A DNA stretch of 64,000 bases from Candidatus Porifericomitales bacterium (GTDB taxonomy: Bacteria; Pseudomonadota; Gammaproteobacteria; CBDEFV01), in assembly GCA_965237735.1 (NCBI GenBank), contig CBDEFV010000007.1:143305-207304 (forward strand), given 5' to 3'. The first letter of the stretch is position 1. Each line of letters opens with the position of its first letter. A program made the position numbers and the translations under genes. The notes under the pieces were generated by a model. It had not been told where the DNA came from and ran no database searches. It saw only the letters and a program-made list of their open reading frames with translations. Of this stretch, positions 28,505 through 61,158 are shown in pieces.

Positions 28505-28581
28505 TGGTCGGGACAGCAGGATTTGAACCTGCGACCTTCTGCTCCCAAAGCAGATGCGCTACCAGGCTGCGCTATGTCCCG
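28505..28581 (-). tRNA. tRNA-Pro (anticodon GGG)
   Basis: Reverse complement CGGGACATAGCGCAGCCTGGTAGCGCATCTGCTTTGGGAGCAGAAGGTCGCAGGTTCAAATCCTGCTGTCCCGACCA. Anticodon loop TTGGGAG. Confidence 0.85.
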
Positions 28582-40277: not shown

Positions 40278-40301
40278 CCACGGATCTGAGGATTCACTTG
40301 A

Positions 40302-44300: not shown

Positions 44301-44760
44301 AGCGGCCAACCCGGGGCTCTACGCGGTGGTGCCGCCCGTTGAAGACAATCCGGCCGCCAAACCCGGCGTCGTCTTCTGCCTGCGACACCTGAGGCAATCC
44401 GGGTCAGACGATGCGAAAGTCATCAACCCCCTGGGGTGTTATTACCTGATTTATGTCCTGGACGACGGCACTGTGCGTTTTGCCTTCACCCAGCCCAAAC
44501 AGGCACTGAGTTTGCTGCGCAGCGTCGCGCGGGGGCATAAGGAGGCCCTCAGGGATTTGTGCCGCCAGTTCGATGAAGCGACTCAGGACGGCCGTGATAT
44601 GGAGCGATACGACACTCTGATCAAGAAGGCGTTGAAATCAATTAAATACACTTTTGATCAGCGAAATTTGGGCAATCTTTTTTCAGGGCGCGGTGGCAAA
44701 CTCGCCAGTACAAGCCAAGTGCCCTCGGAATCTGAAGAGGAGTACGAGTTGCTCACCTAG
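41368..44760 (+). CDS. Phospholipase-D-like (HKD) nuclease domain fused to an SNF2-family helicase
   Basis: N-terminal HKD motif HGKMYHI..GSSNFTAAG. The helicase motifs are ILADSVGLGKTFTA (I), LLVIDESHNFRN (II), LLLSATPVNNN (III) and LIATDCISEGQNLQDCD..QRFGRIDRIGS (V-VI). Confidence 0.85.
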   Translation: MAKTPMLPSGIRDNRDRGSAGEHLAGLLEAKSHLSIVSAYFTIHAYGELKEELEQIDNLHFLFGEPSFLGSLGREQRESREFSLTEQGLKLVNQLRQSRLAKDCAGWIRRKVKIRSVREKFLHGKMYHIKNGEDSHALLGSSNFTAAGLGLNEGGNVELNLVVDSRRDRDDLRAWFDEWWSDETATEDVKDAVLQELEALYSDQKPEFIYYLTLFHIFKDYLDSEKDAASDIEQIALPDTDVWEKLYAFQKDGAKAAINKIKRFNGCILADSVGLGKTFTALAVIKYFELRNERVLVLCPKRLERNWTIYRDNTEYNPFIDDRFRYDVLSHTDLSREGGHADRMDLATLSWGNYDLLVIDESHNFRNNNASRDPQPGEMQPDDKPRKTRYEKLIEDVIKAGINTKVLLLSATPVNNNIFDLRNQISLIAGGDVFRDSHADAVFREHLDLQSVKETTRIAQQRFTQWSMNPQRDSRDLLESIGADFFKLLDGLSIARSRRQIMQHYKEDMDRLGKFPERPPPRSIYSPIDQKDEYFSFEQINEKIKKLKLALYHPSGYLLPDLPTEIRKRYEGRVLGGFTQERREKILIGMMRVNFLKRLESSVHSFCLTLHRTIGKIDELLQKFDEFEEHRQENQEIDYDEFLDPDRLDDPELESSEFVVGKKRKFRLADIDIPKWRRAVSGDRETLGHLWARTEKIGPERDEKLARLRKEIFRKLNHPTTTNKYGRENRKVLIFTAFADTAGYLYDNLHQEIQGMGTHTALLRGDGGNRTTMSTGRDYDNILTNFSPISKGKEKPEDPPSEQIDVLIATDCISEGQNLQDCDLLINYDIHWNPVKIIQRFGRIDRIGSLNEEVHLINFWPTEDLESYLNLQRRVEDRMALVDVSATQTDNVLQIPETKEGSDGQITDVSPPYEAEGPEVGKLVENDLRFRDEQLKRIKEEILDLEDFEDNIALSDFSLDEFRSDLLQFLEERRKELEAANPGLYAVVPPVEDNPAAKPGVVFCLRHLRQSGSDDAKVINPLGCYYLIYVLDDGTVRFAFTQPKQALSLLRSVARGHKEALRDLCRQFDEATQDGRDMERYDTLIKKALKSIKYTFDQRNLGNLFSGRGGKLASTSQVPSESEEEYELLT

Positions 44761-44779
44761 GTTGTCATCCTTGCACCTG

Positions 44780-45157
44780 ATGCCTGACAGCCGCCGACAG
44801 GCCATTCAGGCAGCGCTTGAGGGGTTCAGCCCCGTTGAACTGCGTAGGTCCAGCCTGGCGATTCTCAATGCGCTGGGATATCCAGGCGACAGGACGCCAG
44901 GGATTTCCGATTCACCGGAGGAGTTCAAGGAATTTGCGAAAGACAAATGGCCAAACTTCAATGAAGACAAAGCGCGATTCAACGAATGGAAGCAAGCCAG
45001 CATCCTTTTTCAACTGACAGACGAAGATTTGAGCGATCGGCATGCAACCATGTTAAGTAAAAAATTCGATGCAGGAAGAATTCAGTCCTACGTTTTTTTC
45101 GCCATCGAATTGGATGGAAGCCGCTACTCCAGAACTGCTCTTTTCCGATGCCCGTGA
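44780..45157 (+). pseudogene. Probable N-terminal fragment of the PglX-like methyltransferase (frame-shifted relative to 45148..48492), or a separate small gene
   Basis: MPDSRRQAIQAALEGFSPVELRRSSLAILNALGYP..EEFKEFAKDKW resembles the extreme N-terminus of BREX PglX / DISARM DrmMI methyltransferases. It ends 9 nt after the start of the methyltransferase ORF, in a different frame. Confidence 0.4.
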
Positions 45158-48100
45158 TGGTCTTTTTCAGTTACGGCGGCAAAGTTTCCATTGCCATCAT
45201 CAACCGCCGGCGCAATCAAATTCATCAAGACAGGGATGTTCTCGGCAAAGTCACTTTGATGCAAGATATAGATGTCTTCGAGCCGCATCGAGGCCATCTA
45301 CAAATTTTGGAATCTTTTTCAGCCGATGTACTTCGCAGAGATCAGACGGTAGATAGTTTTGATTCGTTGCACGCCGCTTGGGAGAAGGCGCTTAGCGTTG
45401 AGTTGCTTAACAAGCGCTTTTATCTCGAGCTGTCCAATTGGTACTTCTGGGCATCCGGTAAGGTGGAATTCCCCGACGACATTGAAAAGGATCAAGAGAC
45501 ACGCAATGCGACCAGCTTAATTCGTTTGATCACCCGATTGATCTTCTGCTGGTTTCTTAAGGAGAAGGGGCTGATCCCGAAGGATCTGTTTGAGGAAGAA
45601 AAACTTGAAACGGTTCTGATAGATATGAAGAAAGGTGAATCATCAACCTTTTACCAGGCAATCTTGCAAAACCTGTTCTTCGCCACACTAAACCAGCGGA
45701 TGAACACCGATCAGGAGGCACACCGCAAGTTTGCCCAAGATGCGGACCTTCATACAAACAAAAAAGAGTATGGGGTCAAAAATATTTATCGATACAGAGA
45801 CCAATTCCAAGATGTTGGCAGGGCGCTTGATCTATTCAGGGACATTCCATTCCTTAATGGCGGTCTGTTTGAGTGCCTGGACCGCGAAGATGAGGAGGGA
45901 AGAGTGCAATATCTGGATGGCTTTTCGCGCAACCCCAAGAAACAGTCAAAGGTGCCCGACTATCTGTTTTTCGGGGACGAGCAGGTTGTTGATCTCAACA
46001 AGTTTTTTCAGGAAAACAATAAGAGAGGCAAAAAACAAAAAGTTCGAGGCCTGATTCATATTTTGAGCGACTATAAGTTCACCATTGTCGAGAACACGCC
46101 TATCGAACAGGAAACCGCGCTGGATCCTGAGCTCCTCGGCCTGGTATTCGAGAACCTGCTCGCCCTCTACAATCCCGAAACGAAGACGACAGCACGCAAA
46201 AAAACCGGCTCCTTCTATACCCCCCGCCCTGTAGTGGACTACATGGTCACTGAATCGCTTAAAATGCACCTCACTACAGCATTGACCGAAACAGGCATGG
46301 CTGAAAAAAGGACCCAAACCAAACTCAAGGCTCTCTTTGCCTACGCCGAGCACGGACACGGGCTCAAAGAAGCGGAAGTCGATACTCTTCTTGGTGCCAT
46401 CCATACCTGCAAAATACTCGACCCTGCTTGTGGTTCTGGTGCGTTTCCAATGGGTATGCTGCAGAGATTGGTCTTTGTCATCCAAAAGCTCGACCCGAAC
46501 AACAGTAAATGGAAGAAGCTCCAAATTGACAAGGCGAAGGAGATTCCTGACTCCTCTGCCCGTAAGGCCGCTATTGATGCCATAGAAAAAGATTTTGCCG
46601 ATAACGAGGACGGCTATGGCCGCAAACTCTACCTTATTGAGAACTGCTTATACGGTGTGGATATTCAACCGATCGCTATCCAGATATCAAAATTGCGCTT
46701 CTTTATTTCGCTGATCTGTGATCAGAAGACTAACCGCAACAATACCGAGAACCGCGGAATCCGGCCACTGCCTAATTTGGAAACTAAATTCGTCGTTGCC
46801 GACACGCTTATCAGTCTCGGGATTACCAGGCAACTCGACGTTTTGGTTGACAATGATAAAGTCAAGGAGATAGAAGAAAAACTCCAACGCGTTCGTCATG
46901 ATCACTTCACTGCCGACAAACGCGAACGTCGGCTTGAACTTCAGAGAGAAGACCGAGAACATCGCGATGACTTGGCCGAGGCACTGAAAGAAGGCGGGGC
47001 AGAGGAAATAATCAGACGCAAACTTGCCGATTGGAACCCCTACGATCCTCAGGAATCTGCCGATTTTTTCGAGCCTCGCTGGATGTTTGACAAAACTGTT
47101 AAGGATGGATTTGATGTAGTCATCGGCAACCCACCCTACATGAGAATCCAAGGTATTCGGCAAGTCTCACCAATTGCTGCTGATTACTATAAGAAGCACT
47201 ATAAGAAATCGGCAACTGGTTCCTTTGACCTTTATGTCATCTTCATGGAGCGAGGCATGAGCCTGCTTAAACCCAACGGCATACTCAATTACATCAATCC
47301 AGATAAATGGGTGAATGCAGCCTTTGGTAAGGGTATCCGAGGATATTCTGTCGAGAATAAAAGTGTGCATCGTTTGATTAGTTTCGGAGCACACAAGGTT
47401 TTCTCGGCACATACCTATTCTTCGTTGCTCTGGATGGGCAAAAAGCCAACAGATTCTATCCGCCTTGCCCGGCTTGATCCTGATGTTTCCAAATTGATTC
47501 TGATTGATGAGGAACTGGACAAACTATCAGATCAGGGTTTCACATCAATCCCATTTGATAGTCTTACAGATAGACCGTGGATTCTTATTGCTGGGGATGC
47601 TGCTGAGGCGGCGATGGACGCTATTCAGAGATCTTCCCGGACTGTTAGCGATATTTTTTCAAACATATTCCAAGGTATCGCAAGTAGCAAGGATTCTGTT
47701 TATTTTCTCAAAAGAGCCGAAGACTGCGGAAGTTTCTTCAAAGCCTATTCGGATGAACTTGACGAAGTCATCAAGATAGAAAAGTGGTTGGTAAAGCCGT
47801 TATTGTATGGCGAGCAAGTTCATCGCTATGAATGTCTTGGAACAGATAACGTTGTTGTATTTCCATATGATCTTGGGAACGATGATCTTCCGGCAACAAG
47901 ATCCCTGATGACTGCTGGAGATATTCAGACCAAGTTTCCCATGGGTTGGGAATACTTGGAGCGATGCGAGGAAGCGTTGAGGAGCCGTGAAAGTGGCCGT
48001 CTTAGCAATGACAATAATTGGTATCGCTATATCTATCCCAAGAATTTGCGATTGTTTCGGCTACCCAAGCTTCTCGCTCCCGACATCTCTTTCGGCGGAA

Positions 48101-48492
48101 ATTTTTCGATAGATGAAATTGGTAAGTTTTATACAACCACAACACTATACGGATACATCAAAAGACCTCATATTCGAGAAAGCTATAAATTCCTTCTCGC
48201 GGTGCTAAACAGTAAAGTGCTCTGGTTCTATGTGAAAAATTCAGGAAGTGTTCTGGCTAAAGGATATTATCGCTACACGCCCGGGTATTTAAAAAATTTT
48301 CCGATCCCAGAAGTATCTGATAGTAAGCAGGAGCCGTTCATTCGCTTGGTTGATCAAACCTTGCAGGCTAAGGCCGACAATGGGAATGCCGATACCAGCG
48401 AGCAGGAAGCCGAGATTGACAAGCTAGTCTATGAGCTCTACGGCCTGACTGCCGAAGAAATTACAATCATCGAAGAAAAAAGCAGGGCATGA
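45148..48492 (+). CDS. N6-adenine DNA methyltransferase, gamma class, of the PglX / DrmMI / MmeI-like family
   Basis: Helical-region signature LLNKRFYLELSNWYF and SLIRLITRLIFCWFLKEKGLIP. Motif I is ILDPACGSGAFPMG, motif IV is DVVIGNPPYM, and there is a long C-terminal target-recognition region. 1114 aa. Confidence 0.85.
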   Translation: MPVMVFFSYGGKVSIAIINRRRNQIHQDRDVLGKVTLMQDIDVFEPHRGHLQILESFSADVLRRDQTVDSFDSLHAAWEKALSVELLNKRFYLELSNWYFWASGKVEFPDDIEKDQETRNATSLIRLITRLIFCWFLKEKGLIPKDLFEEEKLETVLIDMKKGESSTFYQAILQNLFFATLNQRMNTDQEAHRKFAQDADLHTNKKEYGVKNIYRYRDQFQDVGRALDLFRDIPFLNGGLFECLDREDEEGRVQYLDGFSRNPKKQSKVPDYLFFGDEQVVDLNKFFQENNKRGKKQKVRGLIHILSDYKFTIVENTPIEQETALDPELLGLVFENLLALYNPETKTTARKKTGSFYTPRPVVDYMVTESLKMHLTTALTETGMAEKRTQTKLKALFAYAEHGHGLKEAEVDTLLGAIHTCKILDPACGSGAFPMGMLQRLVFVIQKLDPNNSKWKKLQIDKAKEIPDSSARKAAIDAIEKDFADNEDGYGRKLYLIENCLYGVDIQPIAIQISKLRFFISLICDQKTNRNNTENRGIRPLPNLETKFVVADTLISLGITRQLDVLVDNDKVKEIEEKLQRVRHDHFTADKRERRLELQREDREHRDDLAEALKEGGAEEIIRRKLADWNPYDPQESADFFEPRWMFDKTVKDGFDVVIGNPPYMRIQGIRQVSPIAADYYKKHYKKSATGSFDLYVIFMERGMSLLKPNGILNYINPDKWVNAAFGKGIRGYSVENKSVHRLISFGAHKVFSAHTYSSLLWMGKKPTDSIRLARLDPDVSKLILIDEELDKLSDQGFTSIPFDSLTDRPWILIAGDAAEAAMDAIQRSSRTVSDIFSNIFQGIASSKDSVYFLKRAEDCGSFFKAYSDELDEVIKIEKWLVKPLLYGEQVHRYECLGTDNVVVFPYDLGNDDLPATRSLMTAGDIQTKFPMGWEYLERCEEALRSRESGRLSNDNNWYRYIYPKNLRLFRLPKLLAPDISFGGNFSIDEIGKFYTTTTLYGYIKRPHIRESYKFLLAVLNSKVLWFYVKNSGSVLAKGYYRYTPGYLKNFPIPEVSDSKQEPFIRLVDQTLQAKADNGNADTSEQEAEIDKLVYELYGLTAEEITIIEEKSRA

Positions 48493-50507
48493 CCATTTCA
48501 AAGCTGACGTCCGCGGATCTTCATGCCGTGGACAGCCTGATGAAAAGTAACAGTAAGACGCTTGGCTTCCTCCCCCGAGAGGTCCTTCTCTACTTTCTTA
48601 AAAAAGAGAGTGTGTTGGGTACCAAGACTGATGATGGGCAACTCATTGGCTATCTTCTCTATGCGTCTTACCCAAACTATATCCGTATCACCCAACTTTG
48701 TGTGTCAGAAACCTTTCGAGGTCAAGACTGGGGAAAACAGCTTTTTGAGGAACTAAGAAAATCCGTTACTACTCAAAAAGACATACGGCTTCACTGCCGT
48801 AATGATTTTCCGACAAATCACATGTGGAGTCATCTGGGGTTTATTCCTCTGGGTGAAAAGCCTGGACGCTCTGCTTCCGGGCATCCTCTGACGCATTGGC
48901 ACTTTACTTTAGCCCGCGATGATCAGCTCAGTCTGTTTCAGGCAAAAGTGTCGGATGATGCCCATGATGTTGCTATCGATGCTCAAGTTTTCTTTGATTT
49001 TGACGAACCTGATAGTGCCAGGATAGCACCCTCCCAAGCGTTGTTTCACGATTTTTCGGATGATTTTCTCAGACTCTGGACAACCGATGAACTGTTTGTC
49101 GAAATTCACCGTGGAAAAGATCCAGATCGGCGCTTCCAATCACGGCAAGAAGTTCATCGGCGGCTAAGAAAGATAGAGCACAAGCGACCATTGGCTGAGC
49201 ACTTTGAGGAAGTCTTAAAGGGAATATTGCCAGTTGCTGGTAGTGAGAGCCGACTATCTGATATTCGGCATATAGCGAAGGTGGCCGCTTCTGATGTAAA
49301 GACTTTTGTTACCTGCGACAGAGCCCTTGGGGGAAAGGCCGACGATATTGCCGATAAGACAGGTGTGCGGGTGCTACAACCAACCGAACTGATTATTCGA
49401 CTTCACAAATTTTCCAAGCCAGAATCCTATAGGTCTACTCGGATCTCTGGTTCCGGTCTCATATTTTGCCGCTTGGATGCCGATAACCTCAGCCACCTTC
49501 CATACGATTCGCTACTTTATGAAGGAGAAAGGAGAGGCCCGTTCAAGGAAAAACTGAATGCTTTTCTTGCAGAGCCTGATCATTACAGATGCGAACTCCT
49601 TCAGTCCGAGGGGGAGACTGTTGCAATCCGTATTCTTACGAGCAACTCGAAAAAGACGTTGTCCATAAAATTAGCCAGAGTTGCACGTTCTGCTGCTCAA
49701 ATGCGGGAGCTCTTCGATCGGTTTTTAATAACAGACACCGTTTCTCAGGCTGTAGAAAAAAAGCTGAGTATGGTGAAGATTGAGAAAGATGCTATTTCTA
49801 CCAGAATGATGACGGGTCTTTACGAGATGGGCTTTACGGAATATAATGGCGATTTCGTGAGGTTTTGTTTTTCACAGTGCCTTGATCGTGAAGAAGCACT
49901 CGACGAGATTTCTGCCTTGCACCCTGAGTCAAAAGAAGCATATTTCAAGATGCAAGGCCCTGATCTTGAACGATGCTGCTCCCCCCTTAGCCTGAAAACA
50001 TCTGATCAGCCGTGCTTTTTAATGCCGATTCGTCCTGGTTATGCAGAGAGCCTTGTTGACCCAGAGCGATCAGCCGGCAGTCTCTTGGGAGGAGTGCCCA
50101 GTGTGTTGCTGAGTTGGTATAACATATATTATCGAAAGAAAAACCGACATAAAATGTTTGGGGCACCCGGGCGGATTCTGTGGTATGTAACTGCCCCCGA
50201 AAAGTGTCTTGTGGCTATTTCACATCTTGATGCTGTTGAGGTGGGTGTTCCGAAAGATCTATTCAGGAAGTTCAAAAAGCACGGCATTCTGGAGTGGGAA
50301 GAGCTTTATGAGATGTGTAATAAGGATGTTTCGAATGAGATTATGGCATTGAAATTCTCCCACACGTTTCCTTTTCGAAAACGCATTTCATTGGATAAAT
50401 TGCGGTGTATTTTCAAGAAGGACCTAGTTGGTTTTTCGGTTCAGGCCCCACTGAGGGTGCCGATAGAAACATTTCAAAAAGTATTCCAACACGGGTACCT
50501 GGAGTAG
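48489..50507 (+). CDS. GNAT-family N-acetyltransferase domain fused to a ~500-aa domain of unknown function
   Basis: N-terminal GNAT fold with motif A (ITQLCVSETFRGQDWGKQLFEEL). The remainder has no recognisable motif. Its start overlaps the methyltransferase stop (ATGA). Confidence 0.6.
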   Translation: MTISKLTSADLHAVDSLMKSNSKTLGFLPREVLLYFLKKESVLGTKTDDGQLIGYLLYASYPNYIRITQLCVSETFRGQDWGKQLFEELRKSVTTQKDIRLHCRNDFPTNHMWSHLGFIPLGEKPGRSASGHPLTHWHFTLARDDQLSLFQAKVSDDAHDVAIDAQVFFDFDEPDSARIAPSQALFHDFSDDFLRLWTTDELFVEIHRGKDPDRRFQSRQEVHRRLRKIEHKRPLAEHFEEVLKGILPVAGSESRLSDIRHIAKVAASDVKTFVTCDRALGGKADDIADKTGVRVLQPTELIIRLHKFSKPESYRSTRISGSGLIFCRLDADNLSHLPYDSLLYEGERRGPFKEKLNAFLAEPDHYRCELLQSEGETVAIRILTSNSKKTLSIKLARVARSAAQMRELFDRFLITDTVSQAVEKKLSMVKIEKDAISTRMMTGLYEMGFTEYNGDFVRFCFSQCLDREEALDEISALHPESKEAYFKMQGPDLERCCSPLSLKTSDQPCFLMPIRPGYAESLVDPERSAGSLLGGVPSVLLSWYNIYYRKKNRHKMFGAPGRILWYVTAPEKCLVAISHLDAVEVGVPKDLFRKFKKHGILEWEELYEMCNKDVSNEIMALKFSHTFPFRKRISLDKLRCIFKKDLVGFSVQAPLRVPIETFQKVFQHGYLE

Positions 50508-50521
50508 TTGTGAAAACGATA

Positions 50522-50980
50522 ATGATCCCTTTGCTGCTCTCTCTGAAACCTCGCTATGCGCAACTCGTTTTCAATGGCAAAAAAACTGCTGAACTGCGAC
50601 GGCAAATTGCTTCCCGCATGGAAAACCGCGACGTGTTTATTTACGTTTCCGGCCCGGTCAAGCAGCTTCAAGGCCGCTTTCGTGTTGAGAAGGTATGGAG
50701 CGGATCACCAGGGGAGGTTTGGAAGCATGTGTCCAAGCTTGCAGGAGTCAATAAGGAAGATTTTGATGCTTATTATGCTGGACGAGAGATTGCCCATGCT
50801 CTGGAAATAACTAATATTTTGAAGTACGAAAAACCCGCCAACCTAAGAGCGCTGAAGAAACAATTTCCGGATTTTGTTGTTCCGCAGTCTTGGAGATACG
50901 TTAAACCTGAAGAACACCGGTCTTTCAAAAGCAAGAAATTAATCCCACAAATCTGGTACAGAGAGTCGAGAGCCTCATAA
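50522..50980 (+). CDS. ASCH (PUA-like) domain protein
   Basis: MIPLLLSLKPRYAQLVFNGKKTAELRRQ...DVFIYVSGPVKQLQGRFRVEKVW fits the ASCH beta-barrel pattern (compare YqfB-like proteins). Begins 15 nt after the GNAT-fusion stop. Confidence 0.55.
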   Translation: MIPLLLSLKPRYAQLVFNGKKTAELRRQIASRMENRDVFIYVSGPVKQLQGRFRVEKVWSGSPGEVWKHVSKLAGVNKEDFDAYYAGREIAHALEITNILKYEKPANLRALKKQFPDFVVPQSWRYVKPEEHRSFKSKKLIPQIWYRESRAS

Positions 50981-51530
50981 AGGTATTCCAAATCATTCTT
51001 TGCTCCTGAATGTAAAACCTTATTCAATAGAGAACAAACACAGTCTGATGCCTGAGGTGGAACCATGATAGACATTGCCTTCGAATTTACCGGGAAATTG
51101 CAGGTATTTTCAGGAAAGCCCCCTGGTACTTCGTCTCGCTCCCCAAAGACGAGGCTCAAAGGGTATATTTTTTCCGTGAAGAAAGCCGGGGCTTTGGCTC
51201 TTTCAGGGTTCAGGCCAAAATTGGCCGCACGGAGTGGAACACATCCATTTTTCGAGATAACAAGAGGGATACGTATCTGCTGTTTATCAAGGCCGCTGTA
51301 CGCTCGGCTGAAAACATCAGGGTCGGCGATGAGGTGCGGGTTCATATTCGGTTACTGTAAATGCATGCCCCGAACAAAACACTATCGGCAAAGCACCTTC
51401 AGGCAGCCCGCTACTCGCACTACCCCGGATTTTGCCCAAAACCACTTGACTGCAGCACCGCTGTATACTATACTTAGATTTAATCAATGCAAGACCCCGT
51501 GCTCTGAAAGCATGATCGTGATCACAAAGA

Positions 51531-52931
51531 TTGCGTGAAGAATGGTGGGAGGCTTCCATTAATGGCCTCGCAAAACTCTACTTCCAGGTGCAGTTTATGA
51601 TGAAGGGTATTCCCCAGCTATCTGTTTCTAAGGAGATCAGAAGCTTTCAATCCTATGATCCAAAAGCTGTTCACTTGTTTCACTATGAAGCAAAGGGGCA
51701 AGACAAATTACCGCATGTAGTGAAGTTTTCGGGCGGGCGCTCAAGCGGCATGCTGTTGCTCATTCTTCTTGAGGCTGGAATCCTTAAAGCGGCCAGAGGC
51801 GATGTGATTGTTTTCAACAACACCTCAGCCGAGCACCCGGCAACCTATGAGTTCACGAAGAAGTTTAAGGAGATGGTGGAGAAGGACTATGAGATTCCAT
51901 TCTTCTGGATAGAATCCCAGACCTATGAAGATGCCAGAAACGGCGAATGGAATCGGCTGTTTTCGTATAGGTTGGTGCAGCCTGAGCCCTATTCAGAAAC
52001 CAACCCCGACGGTTATCACTGGCGTGGAGAGGTCTTTGAAGAATTGCTCTCAGGGAAAGGGTATGTGCCCAATCAATTCAACCGAGTGTGCACAGCCAGC
52101 CTGAAACTGGAAACAACCCGTGCTTTCCTTAAGGACTGGTTTGCAAATAAGCCTGGCATAGCGCGTTTAGGCCACTATGGAGATAAAAGCCGCCTCAACG
52201 ATGACACCCTTTATCAACGCCATCGGAGAAATCAAGGAGATATGCCAAGGGATGTTTTTCTTGAAAAAAAATCATTTGTCCGAAGCAGGCCCGTATTTCG
52301 CCCTGAGCAGTTGTTTGGTGACTTTTCCAAAGCGGCAGTTCCTTTTGAAAACAAAATACTTGAAGGACGACAACTCGGTGGCAATGCCTACTTTGGCCAA
52401 GATGGCGTTGAGTACATTTCTTTCATCGGTATCCGCTATGATGAAATGCACCGTGTTGTTAAAATCCGCGAACGAAACTCCGGCGAGACAGGAACATCTG
52501 GATACGAAGGCGAATATATTCATATGCCTCTCTCGGTCATGGGCATTACTCAAAAAAATGTTAATGATTTCTGGCGCGAGCAGCCATGGGATTTAAGACT
52601 TGACGCAGAGGATGGTTTATCGAATTGCACCTACTGCTTCCTTAAGGGTGCAAGAGGTTTGCAAAAGGTTAGATCCAAACTACAAAAGAGCCTTCCAAAG
52701 AGTTGGGTTCAAACACCTTCAGATATCGCTTGGTGGGTATCCATGGAACGGAAATATGGCCGGGATATGAAGAGAGAAAAACGCAAGCTGCGTAAAAATG
52801 GAACTGATTTTATTGGATTCTTCGGGTCGGACAACAGATTTTCGTACAAATTACTGGCGAACGACACTCATAGAGACAGGATTGTGGCCCAAAATGCCGA
52901 CAGCATGTTGCCGTGCGATTGTACTGATTAG
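51531..52931 (+). CDS. PAPS-reductase-like PP-loop ATP pyrophosphatase (DndC/SspD-like)
   Basis: PP-loop variant VVKFSGGRSSGMLLLILLEAG (compare SGGKDS in DndC/CysH). C-terminal Cys motif NCTYCFLKG. Possible alternative start at MMKGIPQ (51597). Confidence 0.6.
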   Translation: MREEWWEASINGLAKLYFQVQFMMKGIPQLSVSKEIRSFQSYDPKAVHLFHYEAKGQDKLPHVVKFSGGRSSGMLLLILLEAGILKAARGDVIVFNNTSAEHPATYEFTKKFKEMVEKDYEIPFFWIESQTYEDARNGEWNRLFSYRLVQPEPYSETNPDGYHWRGEVFEELLSGKGYVPNQFNRVCTASLKLETTRAFLKDWFANKPGIARLGHYGDKSRLNDDTLYQRHRRNQGDMPRDVFLEKKSFVRSRPVFRPEQLFGDFSKAAVPFENKILEGRQLGGNAYFGQDGVEYISFIGIRYDEMHRVVKIRERNSGETGTSGYEGEYIHMPLSVMGITQKNVNDFWREQPWDLRLDAEDGLSNCTYCFLKGARGLQKVRSKLQKSLPKSWVQTPSDIAWWVSMERKYGRDMKREKRKLRKNGTDFIGFFGSDNRFSYKLLANDTHRDRIVAQNADSMLPCDCTD

Positions 52932-53140
52932 GAACAAGCTCTGCAAACAAAGGGCATTCAGACAACGGTAACAATGGATAAAAGCAAAGTAGCGAGGCCT
53001 GATCTCCACTTTAATCGCAGTGACAAAGTGGTTGATTCTATGCCGATCGGAACAACTGCATATGGCAATGATCCAACCATAGTCGTCAGTGAATTCCTAC
53101 AAAACTCAGAAGTTTCAGTCACCTTCTGCCTGGATCAGGC

Positions 53141-55153
53141 ATGACATCAGATATCCGACCGGACCTTCTCTTTGGGCTTGGTGCAAGCACCGGCTTTTCT
53201 TCCTCGGGAGTCGCATCGTTCGACGATCTTCGCCCTGCTGCCGTGGTGCGGGAGCTCATACAGAATTCTCTTGATGCCGCACGCGAGGCCAAAACCAGTC
53301 CTGCTGTCGTTCGCTTCCGACTCAGGCGCATTGATCAAAAACAGATTCCCGGCATCAAGGCTTACAAAGCGGCTTTTTGTAAGGCTATTAAGCGACAGCA
53401 TGACTCAGAGACCAACACCCTTCACGGCCAGGCCCAACTCACTGTAGATCAGATAGAAACTGCTCTCAACGAAGAGCGACTGGATGTTCTCTCCATCATG
53501 GATAACGGCGGCGGGATCGATAACCGACGGATGGATGCGCTTCTCAGCGACGGCGTCAGCGCCAAGGAAGGTCAGGCTACCGGCACGTACGGGAATGGCC
53601 ACTTCACAGCCATTCCCGCATCCAACCTGCGCTATATCCTCTACGGAGGAGTTATCGCCGACGGCAGCCGAATCGGTTCTGGACACGCCATTCTTGCCTC
53701 TCACATCGGGCTGGAAGAGGAAGAACATCTCCGGGGCGCCGACGGGTTCTTCATCCGTGGCTTCCAAGCCACTTCAGACACACTCTACGAATACGCGGAT
53801 GATCAGGACATTCCAGACCTGATCAGCCAAGACTTAACAGACATCAAATCTCATTCCGGACACGGCACGACCGTCATCATCACAGCCTTCAACCATTTTC
53901 TGGAAGACCGGGGCCGGTCTCTCTGGAATATGGTGTCGGAAGCGGCCTCGGCCAACTTTTTCATTGCGATCGCAAATGATCATCTCAAAGTTATTGTCGA
54001 GGACCTTCGAGATGAGCAACACTCCGAACCCCAGACTCTGGATCGCTCCACCCTTCGAGATGTACTGACTGAACACCAAGGGAAAAAACGGTCAGCCGCT
54101 TTTCTCAGCGGCAGACGGGCCTTTGACGCTCACAGGGCATTCCAATCCGGCAAAGTACACGACGTTGAGACCGACGCAGGCGAAGTCGTCGTCCACCTTC
54201 AGGAAAAAGCTTCCGGGACCACCCATATAGACCTTTGCCGGAACGGAATGTGGATCACCGACGACAAGAGCATTCCAATCTTCCGCTACAAGTTCACGGC
54301 TCGAGCTCCATTCCATGCAGTACTCTCCCTGAACCCGGATGGGGGACGCGACCTCTACAATCTGATCCGCCTTGCGGAAGGACCGTTGCACGATTCGATC
54401 CGGCTCAAGCGCCTCCCACCGGGAAAGAAGAAATGCCTTCAAGGCGCGCTCATACAGATCCGTGACTGGATTCTTGACAACACGACGCCCATCCAATCCG
54501 ATGCCTACTCCCCGGACGACTTCTTTACGTCTGATTTCGGCGACAATGCGGGTGGTGGAAACGGCAAGTCTCGAAAAACGTATTGGGCGCGAACGCCCGT
54601 TGCTGCCAAACGGCGCCCGGCACGCAAATTGCACCCGCCTTCCCCCGGCGAGAAGGAACCGGGAACGCCTGAACCCGAGAACCGCCCCGGGCAAAGGAGA
54701 AATTCAAATGCCAACCGGGCCAGACAAAGACCGTCGCTTCCTGCGCTATTTCGGGCTGCTTCACTCTCCATCGGCGAACACCGCCGCCGTATCGTGGTTG
54801 AGTGCATTGAGGACTACACCGATACCGAACTGCGTCTCGTGGTTGATGAAGCTCTGGATGTAACCTGTGATCGCCCCAATCAGGATGACTATGCCCCAGC
54901 GACCCTCGAAAATGTCACAGTTGATGGCAAACCGGCCTCCCCCGAAAGCCTATGCACATTGGACGGCCGTGTCATCGGCATCCGTCTGGGCAACCTCAAA
55001 GCTGGATCGTCGATTGAGGTCGAAACGGACTACGCTCTTTCTGGAGACTTCCACGGTCTTCCCGACCCCTCGCTCCGTGCCGAACTCTTCAGGTCCCGAA
55101 CGAAACCAGAAGCCGATGGCCAGAACAACAACAAGGACGGCGATACGCAATGA
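53141..55153 (+). CDS. GHKL-superfamily (histidine-kinase/MutL/MORC-like) ATPase
   Basis: Bergerat-fold motifs: N-box VVRELIQNSLDAAREA, G1 box VLSIMDNGGGID, G2 TGTYGNGHF. 670 aa. Overlaps the next gene by 4 nt. Confidence 0.7.
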   Translation: MTSDIRPDLLFGLGASTGFSSSGVASFDDLRPAAVVRELIQNSLDAAREAKTSPAVVRFRLRRIDQKQIPGIKAYKAAFCKAIKRQHDSETNTLHGQAQLTVDQIETALNEERLDVLSIMDNGGGIDNRRMDALLSDGVSAKEGQATGTYGNGHFTAIPASNLRYILYGGVIADGSRIGSGHAILASHIGLEEEEHLRGADGFFIRGFQATSDTLYEYADDQDIPDLISQDLTDIKSHSGHGTTVIITAFNHFLEDRGRSLWNMVSEAASANFFIAIANDHLKVIVEDLRDEQHSEPQTLDRSTLRDVLTEHQGKKRSAAFLSGRRAFDAHRAFQSGKVHDVETDAGEVVVHLQEKASGTTHIDLCRNGMWITDDKSIPIFRYKFTARAPFHAVLSLNPDGGRDLYNLIRLAEGPLHDSIRLKRLPPGKKKCLQGALIQIRDWILDNTTPIQSDAYSPDDFFTSDFGDNAGGGNGKSRKTYWARTPVAAKRRPARKLHPPSPGEKEPGTPEPENRPGQRRNSNANRARQRPSLPALFRAASLSIGEHRRRIVVECIEDYTDTELRLVVDEALDVTCDRPNQDDYAPATLENVTVDGKPASPESLCTLDGRVIGIRLGNLKAGSSIEVETDYALSGDFHGLPDPSLRAELFRSRTKPEADGQNNNKDGDTQ

Positions 55154-56019
55154 CAAAATCCCACAGTATTGATGTAGCCGTACCGGAACCTTCCAACTTG
55201 ATCCGGTTCCAGCGCCACCCCGTACTCGAATCCGGTAATCTCTCGTTTCCCAAGGGCCAATACACGCTTGACTTCGAACCAGGCACTGATCGAACCTCCT
55301 TCTTCATCACCCATCAGGTCCACGGCGCCCCTCTGATTACCCGCTTGCTGGAGGCTGGGAAAGCCCTGTTTGCCTGTATCGTATCGTCTCCAATCTCCTC
55401 GTATCGCCAAACCCATACTTCCGACGGTGCCCGGCACGAAGTGTGCTGCCACCAAAACAATCTCGGCGAACCACCGCTCTTCACTCCGATGATCCTCTGT
55501 ACACAACCCCTTGCCATTACTCTGGACGTCGCCCGCGACGGCCTTCACAATATCTGGGAGGGTCAGCCTGTTACGTTGCAGAAAGGGTCCCGCTTGGCCT
55601 TGGGCAGCGTCATCCAGTTGGAAACGTCGAGAAAAAGCCTTCTTTCCCTGCGCGAGGACACGAAACTGAAGGACGGCCAGTTTGTCGTTAACATTGAGAC
55701 GGAGCCGTTCCTTTTTGTCGTCAATCTCAGTACTGATCTTCACCGGTACTTGCAGCATAACCGGACCGAGCACCGCAGCAATATTATGACGCACATCGTG
55801 ACCGCTTGCCTCGCTCGTCTTCAGCGGAACTTCCACGAAGACGACGATGAATCGGGCTGGAAATCCCACAGCAATCTCCGTGCATTTGCGGATCACCTTG
55901 AAGATAAGGGATTGGGCCATTGGACCGACGATGATTTCCAGCCTGAGCAGGCTGCAACAGTGCTGCACCCGCATGTTCTGCCGACCATTGAATCGGCGGA
56001 TGAAACCGAAAACACATGA
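55150..56019 (+). CDS. Hypothetical protein (289 aa) within the GHKL-DUF262 gene cluster
   Basis: Linked to both neighbours by ATGA overlaps. No recognisable motif. Confidence 0.6.
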   Translation: MTKSHSIDVAVPEPSNLIRFQRHPVLESGNLSFPKGQYTLDFEPGTDRTSFFITHQVHGAPLITRLLEAGKALFACIVSSPISSYRQTHTSDGARHEVCCHQNNLGEPPLFTPMILCTQPLAITLDVARDGLHNIWEGQPVTLQKGSRLALGSVIQLETSRKSLLSLREDTKLKDGQFVVNIETEPFLFVVNLSTDLHRYLQHNRTEHRSNIMTHIVTACLARLQRNFHEDDDESGWKSHSNLRAFADHLEDKGLGHWTDDDFQPEQAATVLHPHVLPTIESADETENT

Positions 56020-56930
56020 ACGGGTTCAAAGAACTCTCTGACATCGAATACACCCGATTGCGGCAGAACCTGCTGCGTTTGAAAGGGAGCGAAAAACAAC
56101 GGAATTTTCTCGAAGAAGCACGCAATACCGGCGCTTTCTTGAACCGCATGGAAAAGATCCCCACCGTCGGCTCCACTGAGGCTGAGCTCGCTCCATCAAA
56201 GATGACTGAAAACGAATTCAAAGAACCTCCTCCTGACACGGAGGCCGCGCTTTACAACGCATGGACGGCGCTTCCGCCCGCGACCGCCTGTCGTTCCACA
56301 TTCTGGGCCAATCTCACACTTCGTCATATCCGGCACGGGTATATCCAATCGACCTTCCTGGCTGCCAACGGTGGCAAACACCTCGGAGGTGCCGAGCACA
56401 TCGACTCGGTTCTGCAGGATTCCACGGCACAGGCCGCCGAACGTATTGACCGGTGCGTCCGCGCCATCCTGCGGCGGCTCGGCGGCCTGCCTGAGATCCG
56501 CGGCAATCGGTCTGTCTACGTGGACTGTCCACTGGCCCGGGCCTGGTGGCGTGAGCGCTGGGTTGAGCAAGCTGCCCAAGGAGACCCGAAGCTCGCTGGG
56601 AAAATACGAGCAGTTGTCCGGATCAAACAAAACTACTGGGAAAAATTCGTCGACCGGATCGTGTTCAGAAATTCCACGTTCGGTTCTGAGAATATTCGAA
56701 ATGCCTTTCTGAGATCGCTGGCACGATTTCTTCAGTCCAACCCAGACTCGCAACTGCGAGAAACCAAAGATCTTCAGCGCCTCTGTCGACGCACCACCGC
56801 ATACCAGGGGCGACAGGAACTAAGCATCCTCACTGATGAGGAACTCGACGCAATTATGGCGGACGTTATTGAGAAGACGTCGAACATCACCCAGCACAAT
56901 CCACAATCAAACAAGAGAGGCAGCACATGA
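56016..56930 (+). CDS. Hypothetical protein (304 aa) within the GHKL-DUF262 gene cluster
   Basis: Linked to both neighbours by ATGA overlaps. No recognisable motif. Confidence 0.6.
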   Translation: MNGFKELSDIEYTRLRQNLLRLKGSEKQRNFLEEARNTGAFLNRMEKIPTVGSTEAELAPSKMTENEFKEPPPDTEAALYNAWTALPPATACRSTFWANLTLRHIRHGYIQSTFLAANGGKHLGGAEHIDSVLQDSTAQAAERIDRCVRAILRRLGGLPEIRGNRSVYVDCPLARAWWRERWVEQAAQGDPKLAGKIRAVVRIKQNYWEKFVDRIVFRNSTFGSENIRNAFLRSLARFLQSNPDSQLRETKDLQRLCRRTTAYQGRQELSILTDEELDAIMADVIEKTSNITQHNPQSNKRGST

Positions 56931-58756
56931 CCCAGCCGGAACCGGCGAGGTATTACCAAAGAAGCATTGATGATTGGCTGCGGAAAGCCGAACAAGGCGA
57001 TATCGCATTGCCGACATTCCAACGGAGTCATGTGTGGAAGAGCAGGCAATCGATTGCCGATTACATTTCCGCCCTGTTCCAAAATCGACCTACCGGACTT
57101 TTTCTTGTCCTGAAAACCGGTGGTAGCCCGGAATTCCCATCCCGACCCCTGAAAGGAATTTCTCCCAAGGCCGAAAACGTGAAGGAATTACTCCTTGACG
57201 GACAACAACGCCTCACGTCAATTTGGCAAGTTCTCAACGGTACTGCCACTGCTCACTTCTACGTCAGAGTCCATGAATTCTCAGAAGACATCTCCGTCGA
57301 CTCAGTTTTCTGGCCTGATAATCCTAAATACCGCAGAATACTGAAAAACCCCAAGGAAGCCTACCGAGAGAACGCGGTGCCTCTCAACATCCTCTGGGAC
57401 AAGACGGCAGGCAGGGGCAAAATCTGGGATTGGTGCAATCAGGCACAAGGGGACTCGTCGGATGCGGCCCGGGAACTTGAGGACGTGATCAATGCCATTC
57501 GGCAAGAGTTTCTCCTGAAGAGATATCTCCAGTACTGTGAGTTGCCGGCTGAAACCAGCAGGGAAACTGCGATCGACATCTTCGTACAATCCAACAAGTC
57601 ATCTGTCAAAGTCAGCGGATTCGATATTGCCGTGGCTCTGGCGACAGAAAAAGGAGACGACGATGCAGGCTTGCGCGAACAACTCTCCCACTTCCATGAA
57701 AGAAGTGACATAACCCGCCACTACATCCCGCATGCAAGTAACGACCCGGAGGTAGCAATTACTCCGCTTGGCGAATGGATGCTTTTTGCCGGCTGCCTTA
57801 CTCAACGCCCCCCGCTTTCTCCCAAGAGACAGCACTACGAGAAAGTCGTTATGGAACTTGTCAAAGATTCTCCTTCCGATGGGAAAAGTCGGTTTGATGA
57901 ATTGCTCGCCTCTGTCCAATGGGCATTGTCCATTCTTGCGGACCACGGTGCGCCGACGAGATCATCGCTCCCCTCATTACCCCCGCTACATGTTCTGTCC
58001 GGTCTCAGCAAAAAGCTGCAACTCCTTTATAGCCGAAGGCCCGTGATTAAACGCCTTACCCAAAGCCTGGTTTCCGCCTATATATGGCGCGCATTCCTCA
58101 CGAAGCGGTATGAGGCAAGCGCCAACGACAAGCTTTTCGAAGACTTCAGCAAACTGGATGCCTGTCTTGACAAAATTTCCAGTGACGGAGACTTTGACTG
58201 GGAACCTAACGACCTGCCACCCATCTTCAATCTCGAAGACTACCCGGTTCCAGATGCAGAAACTCTGGGCAGTCTTGATCGCCCACTGCCATGGCTCGGA
58301 TTAACCGACCGTCTCGGGCGCGCAATCGGATCGGTCTCGCTGAACAGCGACCCCGTTGACTGGGCCACGGGCGAAAAGTTAACTTGTCAATCTGTGCGTA
58401 AACTGGAAAGCAAGTCCAAACTGGATCGACATCACATTTTTCCGAAAGCGTTGTTACAGGAACACGAATTTAATCGAAAGCAAATTGATCATGCACTTAA
58501 CGGCATACTACTGAGCAAGTCTTCAAATAACGACTTTTCCCGTTCCGACCCCAAGGAATACCTCTCATCTCTTCTTGAACAACGATCCGGACCGACCGAA
58601 AAACAATTACGCGACTGGGTCCAATCCCATTTAGTTCCCTACGATGCCCTCATGGCTGAAGGTACGGTAGAAACCCGCTACCGCGACTTTATAAAAGCAA
58701 GAGCTGAACTCCTCGCCAAAAAGATCCAGGAATTGACCAATCCGAGGACACCGTAA
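56927..58756 (+). CDS. DUF262 (ParB-like NTPase) plus DUF1524 (His-Me/HNH nuclease) protein; GmrSD / SspE-like modification-dependent endonuclease
   Basis: N-terminal DUF262 signature IALPTFQRSHVWKSRQSIADYISALF. C-terminal DUF1524 signature KLDRHHIFPKALLQEH..NGILLSKSSN. 609 aa. Confidence 0.8.
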   Translation: MTQPEPARYYQRSIDDWLRKAEQGDIALPTFQRSHVWKSRQSIADYISALFQNRPTGLFLVLKTGGSPEFPSRPLKGISPKAENVKELLLDGQQRLTSIWQVLNGTATAHFYVRVHEFSEDISVDSVFWPDNPKYRRILKNPKEAYRENAVPLNILWDKTAGRGKIWDWCNQAQGDSSDAARELEDVINAIRQEFLLKRYLQYCELPAETSRETAIDIFVQSNKSSVKVSGFDIAVALATEKGDDDAGLREQLSHFHERSDITRHYIPHASNDPEVAITPLGEWMLFAGCLTQRPPLSPKRQHYEKVVMELVKDSPSDGKSRFDELLASVQWALSILADHGAPTRSSLPSLPPLHVLSGLSKKLQLLYSRRPVIKRLTQSLVSAYIWRAFLTKRYEASANDKLFEDFSKLDACLDKISSDGDFDWEPNDLPPIFNLEDYPVPDAETLGSLDRPLPWLGLTDRLGRAIGSVSLNSDPVDWATGEKLTCQSVRKLESKSKLDRHHIFPKALLQEHEFNRKQIDHALNGILLSKSSNNDFSRSDPKEYLSSLLEQRSGPTEKQLRDWVQSHLVPYDALMAEGTVETRYRDFIKARAELLAKKIQELTNPRTP

Positions 58757-59292
58757 CGGATCTGTCCAGCCACCGTGTCGATCAAATGGTCCAATTTCAC
58801 CAATGGCCATTATTGCACAAGAAGTTGCTTGTCCTAGAGACTCCGTGTTGGGCGATTCCAGGGTTCGCAGTGCGCTTGTCTGGGCCTTGTAGGAATATAT
58901 CGGCGATGAGGCAGGAATGCCTCTTTTTAAAGATAAGAACCTGGAAGAAATAATTAAATGCATTGGGCATCGGTCTGCATGGCAGGAGCTGGGGGTCTTT
59001 CCGGTGGGGGAGCTGAAACAGATGTTTGACCGGGAATATATCGCCGGCGTTCGCCAGCGCTGCTGTTGCGCCCCTAAAGGGGCCGGGTTGTGCGAGCCTG
59101 GGGTCGGGTACGATGACACAGGAAATCCGGGGCGCCTGTTATAGTGGCTGGGGCACGGGAGTGTCGAAGGTCCAGCGGCCCGAAAGACAGGATGCGTCGC
59201 TTCAGGTTGGCTGCTGCCCCTGTGCAGTTTGAGCTCATTCATCCCTTCCGCAAGTCGCAAGCCAGAAATCATGAGATGAAAAAGATGCAGTC

Positions 59293-60288: not shown

Positions 60289-61158
60289 ATGGGATCTCTC
60301 AAGGACAAAACAAAGCGTTGGCTTCGCCAGTACCCCCCTTTACTAAGGTTTCATCGTCAAAGAGTGATCCCGCTTTTGAGGAGGTTGCCTGACTTTGTGA
60401 TCATCGGCGCGCAGAAATCCGGAACCACATCACTATATCGCTTTCTCGCCCAGCACCCCGAAGTTGCGCCCGCTTTTAAAAAGGAGAGCCATTACTTTAA
60501 CTGGCACTATGAAAAAGGCGAATGGTGGTATCGTTCTCATTTTCCGACTAAGGCGTCGGGGTATTTTTTTACCTTAAAATCGAGGCAAAAGCTTCTCACT
60601 GGAGAGACTTGCCCAAATTATCTTTTTTACCCTCAGGTTCCCGGCAGGATGAAAGAGATTTTGCCTGACGCCAAACTGATCGTGATTTTGCGCAACCCCG
60701 TTGATCACGCATATTCGAATTATCATATGCGATTGGAATACAGTCAAGAGTCACTGTCATTTGAGAAGGTAATTAAGTTGGAAGAAGCGCTGTGCGCGAA
60801 GGGGTGGGAGCAACTGTTCAAAGCTCCGGATTTCGTTATGACCGGCTACCGTCCTTATTCGTACCTCGCCCGGGGATTTTACTCTGATCAGTTGGAAAAC
60901 TGGTTCAGGTATTACGGACGGGAGAAGTTCCTGATTTTGGCCACAGAAGACTTTTGCGAAAATCGACAGCGAACCTTGGATCAGGTTTTTGATTTCCTCG
61001 GAGTGCGCCCCTTTCAAATAGAGAATCCACAGGATATCAACGTCAGAAATTACAGGGCGATGGACGAGGATACACGAAAATTCCTCATCGAGTACTTCAA
61101 GCCTCACAATGCACGGTTGTACAAGCTGCTGCAACGTGATTTTGATTGGGATCGGTAA
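60289..61158 (+). CDS. Sulfotransferase-family protein
   Basis: 5'-PSB motif VIIGAQKSGTTSLY (PAPS phosphate binding), and a 3'-PB-like region further on. Low GC. Confidence 0.75.
   Translation: MGSLKDKTKRWLRQYPPLLRFHRQRVIPLLRRLPDFVIIGAQKSGTTSLYRFLAQHPEVAPAFKKESHYFNWHYEKGEWWYRSHFPTKASGYFFTLKSRQKLLTGETCPNYLFYPQVPGRMKEILPDAKLIVILRNPVDHAYSNYHMRLEYSQESLSFEKVIKLEEALCAKGWEQLFKAPDFVMTGYRPYSYLARGFYSDQLENWFRYYGREKFLILATEDFCENRQRTLDQVFDFLGVRPFQIENPQDINVRNYRAMDEDTRKFLIEYFKPHNARLYKLLQRDFDWDR

Follow-up and report, generated by a model that had tools for sequence, protein, structure and literature searches.

A hybrid copy of a candidate modification-restriction system combining a PP-loop enzyme with a GHKL ATPase trio in a Candidatus Porifericomitales bacterium

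The window analysed here comprises 64,000 nucleotides of contig CBDEFV010000007.1 of Candidatus Porifericomitales bacterium (assembly GCA_965237735.1, positions 143,305 to 207,304 of the forward strand). The locus of interest is a run of five genes in which an undescribed defence system had been proposed, made up of a modification activity around a DndC/SspD-like enzyme and a nuclease that senses the modification. The genes code, in this order, for a PP-loop adenosine triphosphate (ATP) pyrophosphatase (PP below), a GHKL ATPase, a protein of 289 residues, a DUF6339 protein and a DUF262 nuclease (Table 1); the middle three are referred to as the trio. All five were found as forward-strand open reading frames (ORFs) where the initial annotation had placed them, all are full length, and every invariant motif in them is intact. 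The junctions between the GHKL and 289-residue genes, the 289- and 304-residue genes, and the 304-residue and DUF262 genes each read ATGA, confirming three consecutive overlaps of stop and start codons. Between the PP and GHKL genes a spacing of 210 nucleotides had been given; it measures 209 nucleotides, and the gap is not empty, as it holds an ORF of 56 codons. In its longest form the PP ORF runs from a TTG at 51531 to 52931, and 51531 had been taken as the beginning of the gene. The gene itself stands, with its start most likely at the ATG at 51597, because the 444-residue product is on public record and the amino-termini of homologues agree with it. The number of promoter-like sites in the region does not exceed the shuffled expectation, and the one listed upstream of PP is a consensus match only; the terminator-like hairpin past the last gene is likewise of a kind no more frequent than chance predicts. 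No cysteine desulfurase gene was detected by tblastn in the window, in agreement with what had been reported.

Table 1. Features of the locus, in window coordinates (GC, guanine-plus-cytosine fraction)
Feature	Position	Strand	Remarks
Promoter-like site TTGACT-17-TATACT	51446-51474	+	10/12 consensus match; PP start codon about 120 nt downstream
PP-loop ATP pyrophosphatase, probable sulfurtransferase	51597-52931	+	444 aa; 'clade B' type; GC 0.46
Remnant amino-terminus of displaced clade-B GHKL gene	52974-53144	+	56 codons; GC 0.44
GHKL (Bergerat-fold) ATPase	53141-55153	+	670 aa; clade A type; GC 0.56; PDC-M33A-related
289-aa protein	55150-56019	+	PDC-M33B-related
DUF6339 protein	56016-56930	+	304 aa; PDC-M33C-related
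DUF262 (GmrSD_N) protein with carboxy-terminal His-Me-finger-type nuclease	56927-58756	+	609 aa
Terminator-like hairpin and T-run	58908-58923	+	about 150 nt past the last stop codon; consensus match only

The PP-loop enzyme contains the motif KFSGGRSSG, which constitutes its PP-loop, and five invariant cysteines, located in RxCT (C165), in SNCxxCFLKG (C344 and C347) and in a carboxy-terminal LPCDCTD (C440 and C442). Its matches to PADLOC models are all weak: the one to SspD (7.9e-8) aligns positions 2-56 of 277 only, which is the PP-loop motif, and those to BrxP (9.4e-6) and DndC (2.5e-4) extend over about 65 and about 40 residues, respectively. Pfam PAPS_reduct is matched by 35 of 40 family members, at best with an E-value of 6.5e-5, and the family amounts to 131 representatives (50% clustering, E <= 1e-30). 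Because the matches to SspD, BrxP, DndC and PAPS_reduct are only weak, the enzyme is best described, by its sequence, as a separate, divergent branch of the PAPS-reductase/DndC/SspD/BrxP superfamily and not as a DndC orthologue. Of the likeness to DndC and SspD first given for it, membership of the superfamily therefore stands, on the motif and the weak hidden Markov model (HMM) matches, while orthology to DndC does not. A role in tRNA thiolation or sulfate assimilation was considered and rejected in view of the linkage to defence genes, the low-GC island in which the gene lies and the existence of fusions to DNA methyltransferases. The sole plasmid match to PP, on Bosea pANAM02, is an unrelated PAPS sulfotransferase beside a thymidylate synthase and is uninformative.

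All three Bergerat motifs are present in the 670-residue protein: ExxxNxxD (motif I; E38, N42 and D45), DxGxG (motif II; D121-N-G-G-G125) and GxxGxG (motif III; G148-T-Y-G-N-G153), and these residues are invariant in 15 sequences. Matches to HATPase_c_3 (E 0.001), HATPase_c, MutL and Topo VI-B are weak; together with the motifs they uphold the assignment as a GHKL ATPase. In the 289-residue protein, H55, C76, R86 and W136 are invariant and H215 and C220 nearly so, and its AlphaFold model (predicted local distance difference test, pLDDT, 80) has a beta-sandwich amino-terminal part and a helical carboxy-terminal part. The 304-residue protein belongs to Pfam DUF6339 (E 7.6e-9), and its model (pLDDT 83, predicted template modelling score 0.82) is all-helical, with an Arg/Trp-rich conserved core (..GNRSVYVDCPFARAWWRER..). 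Among solved structures in the PDB, no functional analogue of either predicted fold was found, the DUF6339 model being without any structural match there, and PDB sequence searches, both with single sequences and with profiles, gave matches at chance or motif level only for PP and the three trio proteins. None of the trio proteins matched a Dnd or Ssp model, so that the middle components do lie outside the known Dnd and Ssp sets, as had been stated.

The combination as a whole had also been called unrecognised. This is not wholly so for the trio, because PADLOC already lists it as candidate PDC-M33 A/B/C; for the complete system with PP, no description was found in the literature searched. Candidates of the PDC class are untested and owe their prediction to guilt-by-embedding (Payne et al. 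2024 preprint, 10.1101/2024.01.29.577857). In the PADLOC scans, the PDC-M33 models were matched by the three trio proteins only: PDC-M33A by the GHKL ATPase (1.8e-32), PDC-M33B by the 289-residue protein (8.2e-7; 44 of 45 family members match) and PDC-M33C by the DUF6339 protein (E 0.012; 27 of 41 family members match, down to 3.7e-8). As in PDC-M33, the three genes are co-oriented and follow the order of the A, B and C models, and the C proteins of plasmid-borne examples are likewise DUF6339 proteins. Unlike the locus described here, PDC-M33 is a three-gene candidate, and its plasmid examples are not accompanied by genes for a PP-loop enzyme, a desulfurase or a nuclease. The resemblance is a distant one between subfamilies, with 22% identity to the plasmid GHKL proteins.

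The last protein has an amino-terminal GmrSD_N (DUF262) domain (E 7.3e-19) with FQR and DGQQR motifs; the domain is present in 19 of 19 family members. The carboxy-terminus contains the invariant motif (D/E)RHH[IV]FP...LNG[VI]LL...N, which is of the His-Me-finger type, and matches HNH_2 weakly (E 0.004). A DUF262-DUF1524 architecture had been assigned, of which the DUF262 part is borne out; the Pfam DUF1524 threshold is not reached by the carboxy-terminal domain in any of the 19 members, though the His-Me motif is invariant in them. The best solved relative is BrxU (PDB entry 7p9k; profile match of 3e-12 over the amino-terminal half) and the best PADLOC family is the BrxU-like HEC-05 (2.7e-16), while the PADLOC SspE model is not matched. 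Of the two kinds of nuclease named earlier, GmrSD and SspE, the protein is thus closer in sequence to the GmrSD/BrxU kind. The nuclease appears to be BrxU/GmrSD-like by sequence and SspE-like by architecture, and to be an optional restriction module of the system. With GmrSD and BrxU it shares the order of domains and both DUF262 motifs; unlike them, it is sub-threshold for DUF1524, is operon-coupled to modification genes and has a Pbe-like module as its alternative, as described below.

The conservation of the locus was analysed from two sides. A scan anchored on the GHKL gene, in which each species was represented by a single genome, added 74 loci, exclusively from metagenome-assembled genomes (MAGs), and brought the total to 77, over which ORFs were clustered. 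They come from Gamma- and Alphaproteobacteria, Latescibacterota, Acidobacteriota, Longimicrobiales, Dehalococcoidia, Spirochaetia, Binatia, Verrucomicrobiae and Entotheonella. The GHKL gene is present in 76 of the 77, PP in 74, the 289-residue gene in 73, DUF6339 in 71 and a cysteine desulfurase in 63, with the missing genes explained in part by contig truncation (loci L007, L035, L046 and L074). The system genes share one strand, and neighbours are mostly contiguous or overlapping. In a second scan, anchored on PP in metagenomes, the trio directly adjoins PP in 55 of 66 loci, arranged either as PP(-desulfurase)-trio or as trio-PP(-desulfurase); the remaining 11 are either cut off by a contig end or contain a short PP fragment. 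Many of these PP-anchored loci consist of four genes only, PP and the trio. Altogether, over 100 independent loci contain the gene set, and its clustering, for which co-occurrence in other genomes had been the suggested check, is far beyond chance. Because both scans show the linkage, PP, the GHKL ATPase, the 289-residue protein and the DUF6339 protein are the conserved unit, across many phyla.

In relatives of the window locus, the common order is PP, Aminotran_5 desulfurase, GHKL, 289-residue protein and DUF6339, with the desulfurase between PP and GHKL matching the SspA and DndA models at about 1e-140. Genome matches are virtually all MAGs from more than ten phyla, many of them apparently sponge-associated, judged by genome names alone (lineages or bins named Entotheonella, Porisulfidus and COS/RHO/CLI/SB06xx). 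Most of the apparent sponge-symbiont copies carry the desulfurase between PP and GHKL; the window copy does not. Identities of 50-60% across phyla would imply horizontal spread within one habitat.

The DUF262 nuclease had been regarded as the fixed fifth gene. It is instead optional, occurring in 20 of the 77 loci; in some of these, the window included, it comes after DUF6339, and in others between PP/desulfurase and GHKL. In 26 other loci there is a Pbe-like module of four genes, coding for a 661-residue Sigma70_r4 protein, a PbeA-like helicase (5.6e-151), a PbeC-like ABC ATPase (4e-41) and a 171-residue protein; PbeA-like and PbeC-like genes were counted in 24-26 loci. The two modules are mutually exclusive, none of the loci having both. 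A restriction module is inserted inside the operon, between PP/desulfurase and GHKL, in L050, L057, L067-L070, L072, L075 and L078, and in L068 it is the Pbe-like module that lies there, between PP and GHKL. DndB-like genes (Pfam DndB, 3.4e-23) are found near the operon in eight loci, usually just upstream of PP, and HNH genes with a ScoMcrA-type sulfur-binding domain within 10 kb in at least five. Directly after DUF6339, 17 GHKL-anchored loci have a gene for a 497-residue protein without family (weak HNH_repeat match, E 6e-4; for instance L011 13746-15239 and L002 17492-18991), which usually precedes the Pbe-like module and may be a further component of the system. In L002, L003 and L004, which belong to one gammaproteobacterial lineage, the operon is followed by a BrnT/BrnA toxin-antitoxin pair (about 13816-14425) and an 812-residue protein with a 2-oxoglutarate-Fe(II) oxygenase domain (14527-16965), and has upstream of it a mutasome of the imuA/imuB/dnaE2 type with LexA.

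PP-family domains are also found fused to C5 DNA methyltransferases. In P0401 (DNA_methylase, 3.9e-70) the PP domain is 42% identical to the window PP. Its gene belongs to a mobile element that also codes for ParA, Rep3, topoisomerase, SSB and secretin/T2SSE components, and no GHKL trio lies close to it; P0395 and P0397 are fusions of a similar kind. The P0401 protein (L152, 9001-11472) has 823 residues and contains a complete C5 cytosine DNA methyltransferase besides the PP-family domain. Taken together with the plasmid trios without PP described below, these fusions suggest that the substrate of PP is DNA and that the enzyme depends on a partner engaging DNA, which would be either the trio or a fused methyltransferase.

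The window copy is a chimera, with PP from one clade of the system, clade B, and the cassette from GHKL to the nuclease from another, clade A. Its trio is 57-64% identical to that of clade A loci L001 and L006, whose PP is 49-51% identical to the one in the window. The window PP is 61% identical to that of clade B loci L073 and L075 and 58% to that of L064 and L078, whereas the clade B trio proteins are only 28-42% identical to those of the window (32-38% for GHKL). When PP and GHKL identities to other loci are correlated, the window locus gives a Spearman rho of -0.13 and is the sole negative locus (the median is 0.83). The scar between the two parts is marked by a step in GC, from 0.46 in PP and the genes upstream to 0.55-0.56 in the trio and 0.51 in the nuclease. 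It also contains the 56-codon ORF, which aligns with the exact GHKL amino-termini of L073, L064, L072, L062, L034 and others, matches clade B best (..RPDLHF..VVSEFLQNS), ends just after the N-box and overlaps with its stop codon the start of the intact GHKL gene in an ATGA. From the identity split, the negative correlation, the GC step and the GHKL remnant, it follows that a clade-A cassette displaced the clade-B trio downstream of about codon 45, with the recombination junction near position 53110. A clade-A desulfurase gene was considered as the source, through its 3' end, of the final 11 codons of the 56-codon ORF, and the resemblance (..LDQ..A*) is too weak to call. Several clade-B loci (L059, L064, L065, L073 and L076) are naturally without a desulfurase, so its absence from the window is probably ancestral to the PP donor and not a fresh deletion. 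One of them, L073, has two GHKL genes, an apparently truncated one after PP (8169-9650) and a full-length one after DUF6339 (12266-14323), which hints that shuffling of cassettes within the system is recurrent.

Comparison with systems known to introduce phosphorothioate (PT) into DNA shows a common logic with different components. Known PT systems are modular in the same manner, and some of their partner families recur here: Dnd is combined with either DndFGH or PbeABCD, and Ssp with either SspE or SspFGH (PMC6459918, PMC9239217). The PP-loop enzymes of PT systems have DNA-handling partners, which are DndD/E, SspB/C or a DUF4007 domain fused to BrxP (PMC12839542), and a paper of January 2026 names dnd, ssp and BREX-4 brxP as the PT gene families (PMC12914056). 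To Ssp (SspABCD-SspE; Xiong et al. 2020; PMC9646914) the system is similar in having a PP-loop enzyme, a desulfurase (here in relatives), an ATPase and small DNA-handling proteins, in the DUF262 and His-Me nuclease partner, and in swappable restriction modules (SspE or SspFGH there, DUF262 or Pbe-like here). Unlike in Ssp, the ATPase is of the GHKL type and has no match to the SspC model; neither the PADLOC SspB and SspC models nor Pfam DUF4007 matched any system protein of the window (E <= 0.01), and 41 members of the DUF6339 family and 45 of the 289-residue family gave no such match either (E <= 0.1). PP shares with SspD the PP-loop motif only (8e-8), and the nuclease matches BrxU/HEC-05 and not SspE. 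Similarities to Dnd (PMC6459918; PMC10853773) are the DndA-like desulfurase of the relatives (1e-140), the richness of PP in cysteines, as in the Fe-S enzyme DndC, the DndB-like genes upstream in eight loci and the PbeA/PbeC-like modules downstream in about 25. In addition, a proposed DNA-scanning ATPase core recruiting varied modification enzymes would parallel the DndD-DndE core (PMC10853773). Unlike Dnd, there is no ABC/SMC-type DndD and no ribbon-helix-helix DndE, the GHKL, beta-sandwich and DUF6339 proteins being in their place, and the DndA/IscS desulfurase is missing from the window, though present in 63 of 77 related loci. BREX type 4, in which PT is formed outside Dnd and Ssp, likewise has a cysteine-rich PAPS-reductase-family enzyme and a DndA-like desulfurase (PMC12914056, PMC12839542); there, however, BrxP carries a fused DUF4007 domain and acts together with BrxC, PglZ and BrxL, and no match to PglZ, BrxC or BrxL was found among the five genes or the scanned upstream neighbours. 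By components, the locus therefore appears to belong to none of Dnd, Ssp and BREX type 4, but to share their PP-loop/desulfurase logic. The literature searched contained no description linking a GHKL ATPase, MORC, DUF6339 or PDC-M33 to sulfur modification or phosphorothioate, and a GHKL partner is not mentioned in two comparative-genomics papers on PT and BREX machinery.

Around PP and the trio, several families linked to PT recur: PbeA/PbeC-like proteins, DndB-like proteins, the ScoMcrA-type sulfur-binding domain and the DndA/SspA-type desulfurase. Because these partners and optional restriction modules surround PP and the trio, the four genes can be read as a phosphorothioation-like modification module. 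We hold, with slightly more confidence than doubt, that the locus represents, in hybrid form, a modular immune system of modification and restriction of this kind, in which the trio takes the place of DndD/E or SspB/C. The proposal of an undescribed defence system with a modification and a sensing arm thus gains from comparative genomics as an idea, and loses part of the novelty of the trio, the particular closeness of the nuclease to SspE and its place as a fixed gene. In the mechanism envisaged, a cysteine desulfurase would supply persulfide sulfur; for the window copy this would be a housekeeping IscS-type enzyme encoded elsewhere. The cysteine-rich PP-loop enzyme, probably binding an Fe-S cluster, would activate the DNA target with ATP and insert the sulfur, with a backbone phosphorothioate as the most likely product. 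The GHKL ATPase would act as an ATP-gated dimeric DNA clamp and, together with the beta-sandwich and Arg/Trp-rich DUF6339 proteins, would find, open or nick target sites and present them to PP, which is the job of DndD/DndE or SspB/SspC. Finally, the DUF262/His-Me nuclease would read the modification state and nick or cut invading DNA, as SspE does in Ssp, a task that the Pbe-like module would take over in sister loci.

Several observations weigh against this reading. PP scores only 16.9 bits against TIGR03183, the DndC equivalog, whose cut-off is 290.4, and to judge from such scores it resembles DndC, SspD and BrxP weakly, far under NCBIfam cut-offs. In the trio, no nickase or sequence-reader domain was identified, and in 31 of the 77 loci no recognisable restriction partner was found within 10 kb. 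Distant trios of GHKL, 287-residue and DUF6339 proteins (about 22% identity) are present on Lactobacillales plasmids without any PP gene. On a Lactococcus lactis plasmid (L081/L085) the trio is alone between IS6 and IS21 elements, and on L. salivarius pMP1046A (L082, 8920-18430) it comes after hsdS/hsdM, of a type I restriction-modification system, and before genes for a 900-residue methyltransferase, a DEAD helicase and a GIY-YIG nuclease. Because the plasmid trios have no PP gene, it seems that the trio can work without sulfur chemistry, and it might be an effector and not a targeting device. PDC-M33 would then be a stand-alone effector or sensor arm, for which PP and the desulfurase supply a self-mark protecting host DNA, or which they regulate. 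The derivation of PDC-M33 as a defence candidate, the loci without another restriction module and the capacity of a PP domain fused to a C5 methyltransferase to act without the trio are consistent with this. On the other hand, the known PP-loop PT enzymes always need DNA-handling partners (PMC12839542) and the unfused 444-residue PP has no recognisable DNA-binding domain; the dedicated DUF262 or Pbe-like modules of 46 of the 77 loci would be redundant; and neither a nuclease domain nor another domain of a toxic effector was detected in the trio proteins. We consider the stand-alone role unlikely. The chemistry may also differ from the one proposed. PP-loop enzymes such as ThiI, MnmA, TtcA and TilS classically adenylate base carbonyls, PP-family domains are found in one protein with C5-cytosine methyltransferases, enzymes that act by flipping the cytosine out, and the kinship of PP to DndC, SspD and BrxP is remote. 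The product could accordingly be another sulfur-containing or PP-loop-activated base modification, for example a thiolated pyrimidine at a flipped-out base. The recurrent partners of the system are exactly those of PT systems, however, among them the ScoMcrA-type sulfur-binding domains, which recognise PT, and we consider a base product decidedly improbable.

Being nearer in sequence to BrxU and GmrSD than to SspE, the nuclease could be an independent type IV enzyme directed against modified phage DNA and blind to the mark made by its own system. In BREX, genes of the BrxU type are known as an embedded, complementary layer of defence, and the nuclease is missing from 57 of the 77 loci. Its strict exclusivity with the Pbe-like module in the same operon slots, the translational coupling to the DUF6339 gene through ATGA in the window and a divergence that follows that of the trio across clade-A loci argue for a part in the system, and we regard independence as somewhat unlikely. 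For the window copy itself, the lack of a desulfurase and the mixture of two clades may mean that it is non-functional, an evolutionary wreck with a mismatched PP and a scar left by cassette replacement, as the chimerism, the GC step and the GHKL remnant would allow. Against this, the five ORFs are full length with all invariant motifs intact, and it is normal for the clade from which PP came, as for many of the four-gene loci in metagenomes, to have PP and GHKL without a desulfurase. Such loci presumably use IscS, similar to some Dnd systems (IscS-DndBCDE; PMC11662687). We consider inactivity unlikely. A broader version of the preferred reading, in which the trio serves as a targeting device for PP, is also conceivable: the trio may be an ATP-driven platform of general use for targeting DNA, without relation to DndDE and SspBC, which recruits varied modifying enzymes and with PP produces PT by a fourth independent route or a novel DNA sulfur modification, for instance a thiolated base. 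Of its partners, the sulfurtransferase is seen here and a methyltransferase is suggested, for Lactobacillales, by gene adjacency only, and we consider this extension unlikely.

The surroundings of the locus are a mosaic in GC, the host level being about 0.65 and the island around the locus, at about 38-61 kb, having 0.45-0.56. Host-like segments of 0.62-0.68 alternate with islands of 0.44-0.56 at 1-12.7, 23-27.5 and 38-61 kb. The first of these (48-12725, forward strand, GC 0.48-0.52) contains ten consecutive paralogous genes for proteins of 367-452 residues, each with a weak Glyco_tranf_2_4/GT92 signature, an unusually long tandem run of glycosyltransferases of one type. The island at 23-27.5 kb carries GT6 and LicD-like genes and is abutted by a tRNA-His/Arg/Pro cluster on the reverse strand (28312-28581). 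At the left edge of the third island there are two genes for TPR-repeat proteins (38724-41024, forward strand), and at its right edge a sulfotransferase gene (60289-61158, forward strand, GC 0.47). Directly upstream of PP, and as low in GC as the PP gene, a second defence-like module extends over 41365-51361 on the forward strand. It codes for a DrmD-like PLD(HKD)-SNF2 helicase (PADLOC C3a139, 8.6e-130), a type IIG-like Eco57I/TaqI_C methyltransferase of 1114 residues that is DrmMI/PglX-like, and a 672-residue GNAT-domain protein with a weak match to PDC-M11A, the gene of which overlaps that of the methyltransferase. These genes are followed by one for an ASCH protein (50522-50980) and by an ORF of 99 residues.

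The system is widespread and modular, with two proteins lacking known folds at its core. If the proposed function is true, it would be a further independent architecture for sulfur incorporation into DNA, beside Dnd, Ssp and BREX type 4, with a DNA-handling core made up of a GHKL ATPase and two proteins for whose predicted folds there is no solved functional analogue. It would give a testable function to the orphan candidate PDC-M33 and to Pfam DUF6339, and would mean that restriction modules of the Pbe-like and GmrSD-like types can be combined with different kinds of modification machinery. The natural chimera in the window indicates that PP and the trio can be swapped between clades, which bears on how target specificity is encoded. 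For sponge symbionts and marine bacteria, the system would account for part of a 'phosphorothioation-like' defence load that surveys based on dnd and ssp genes have missed.

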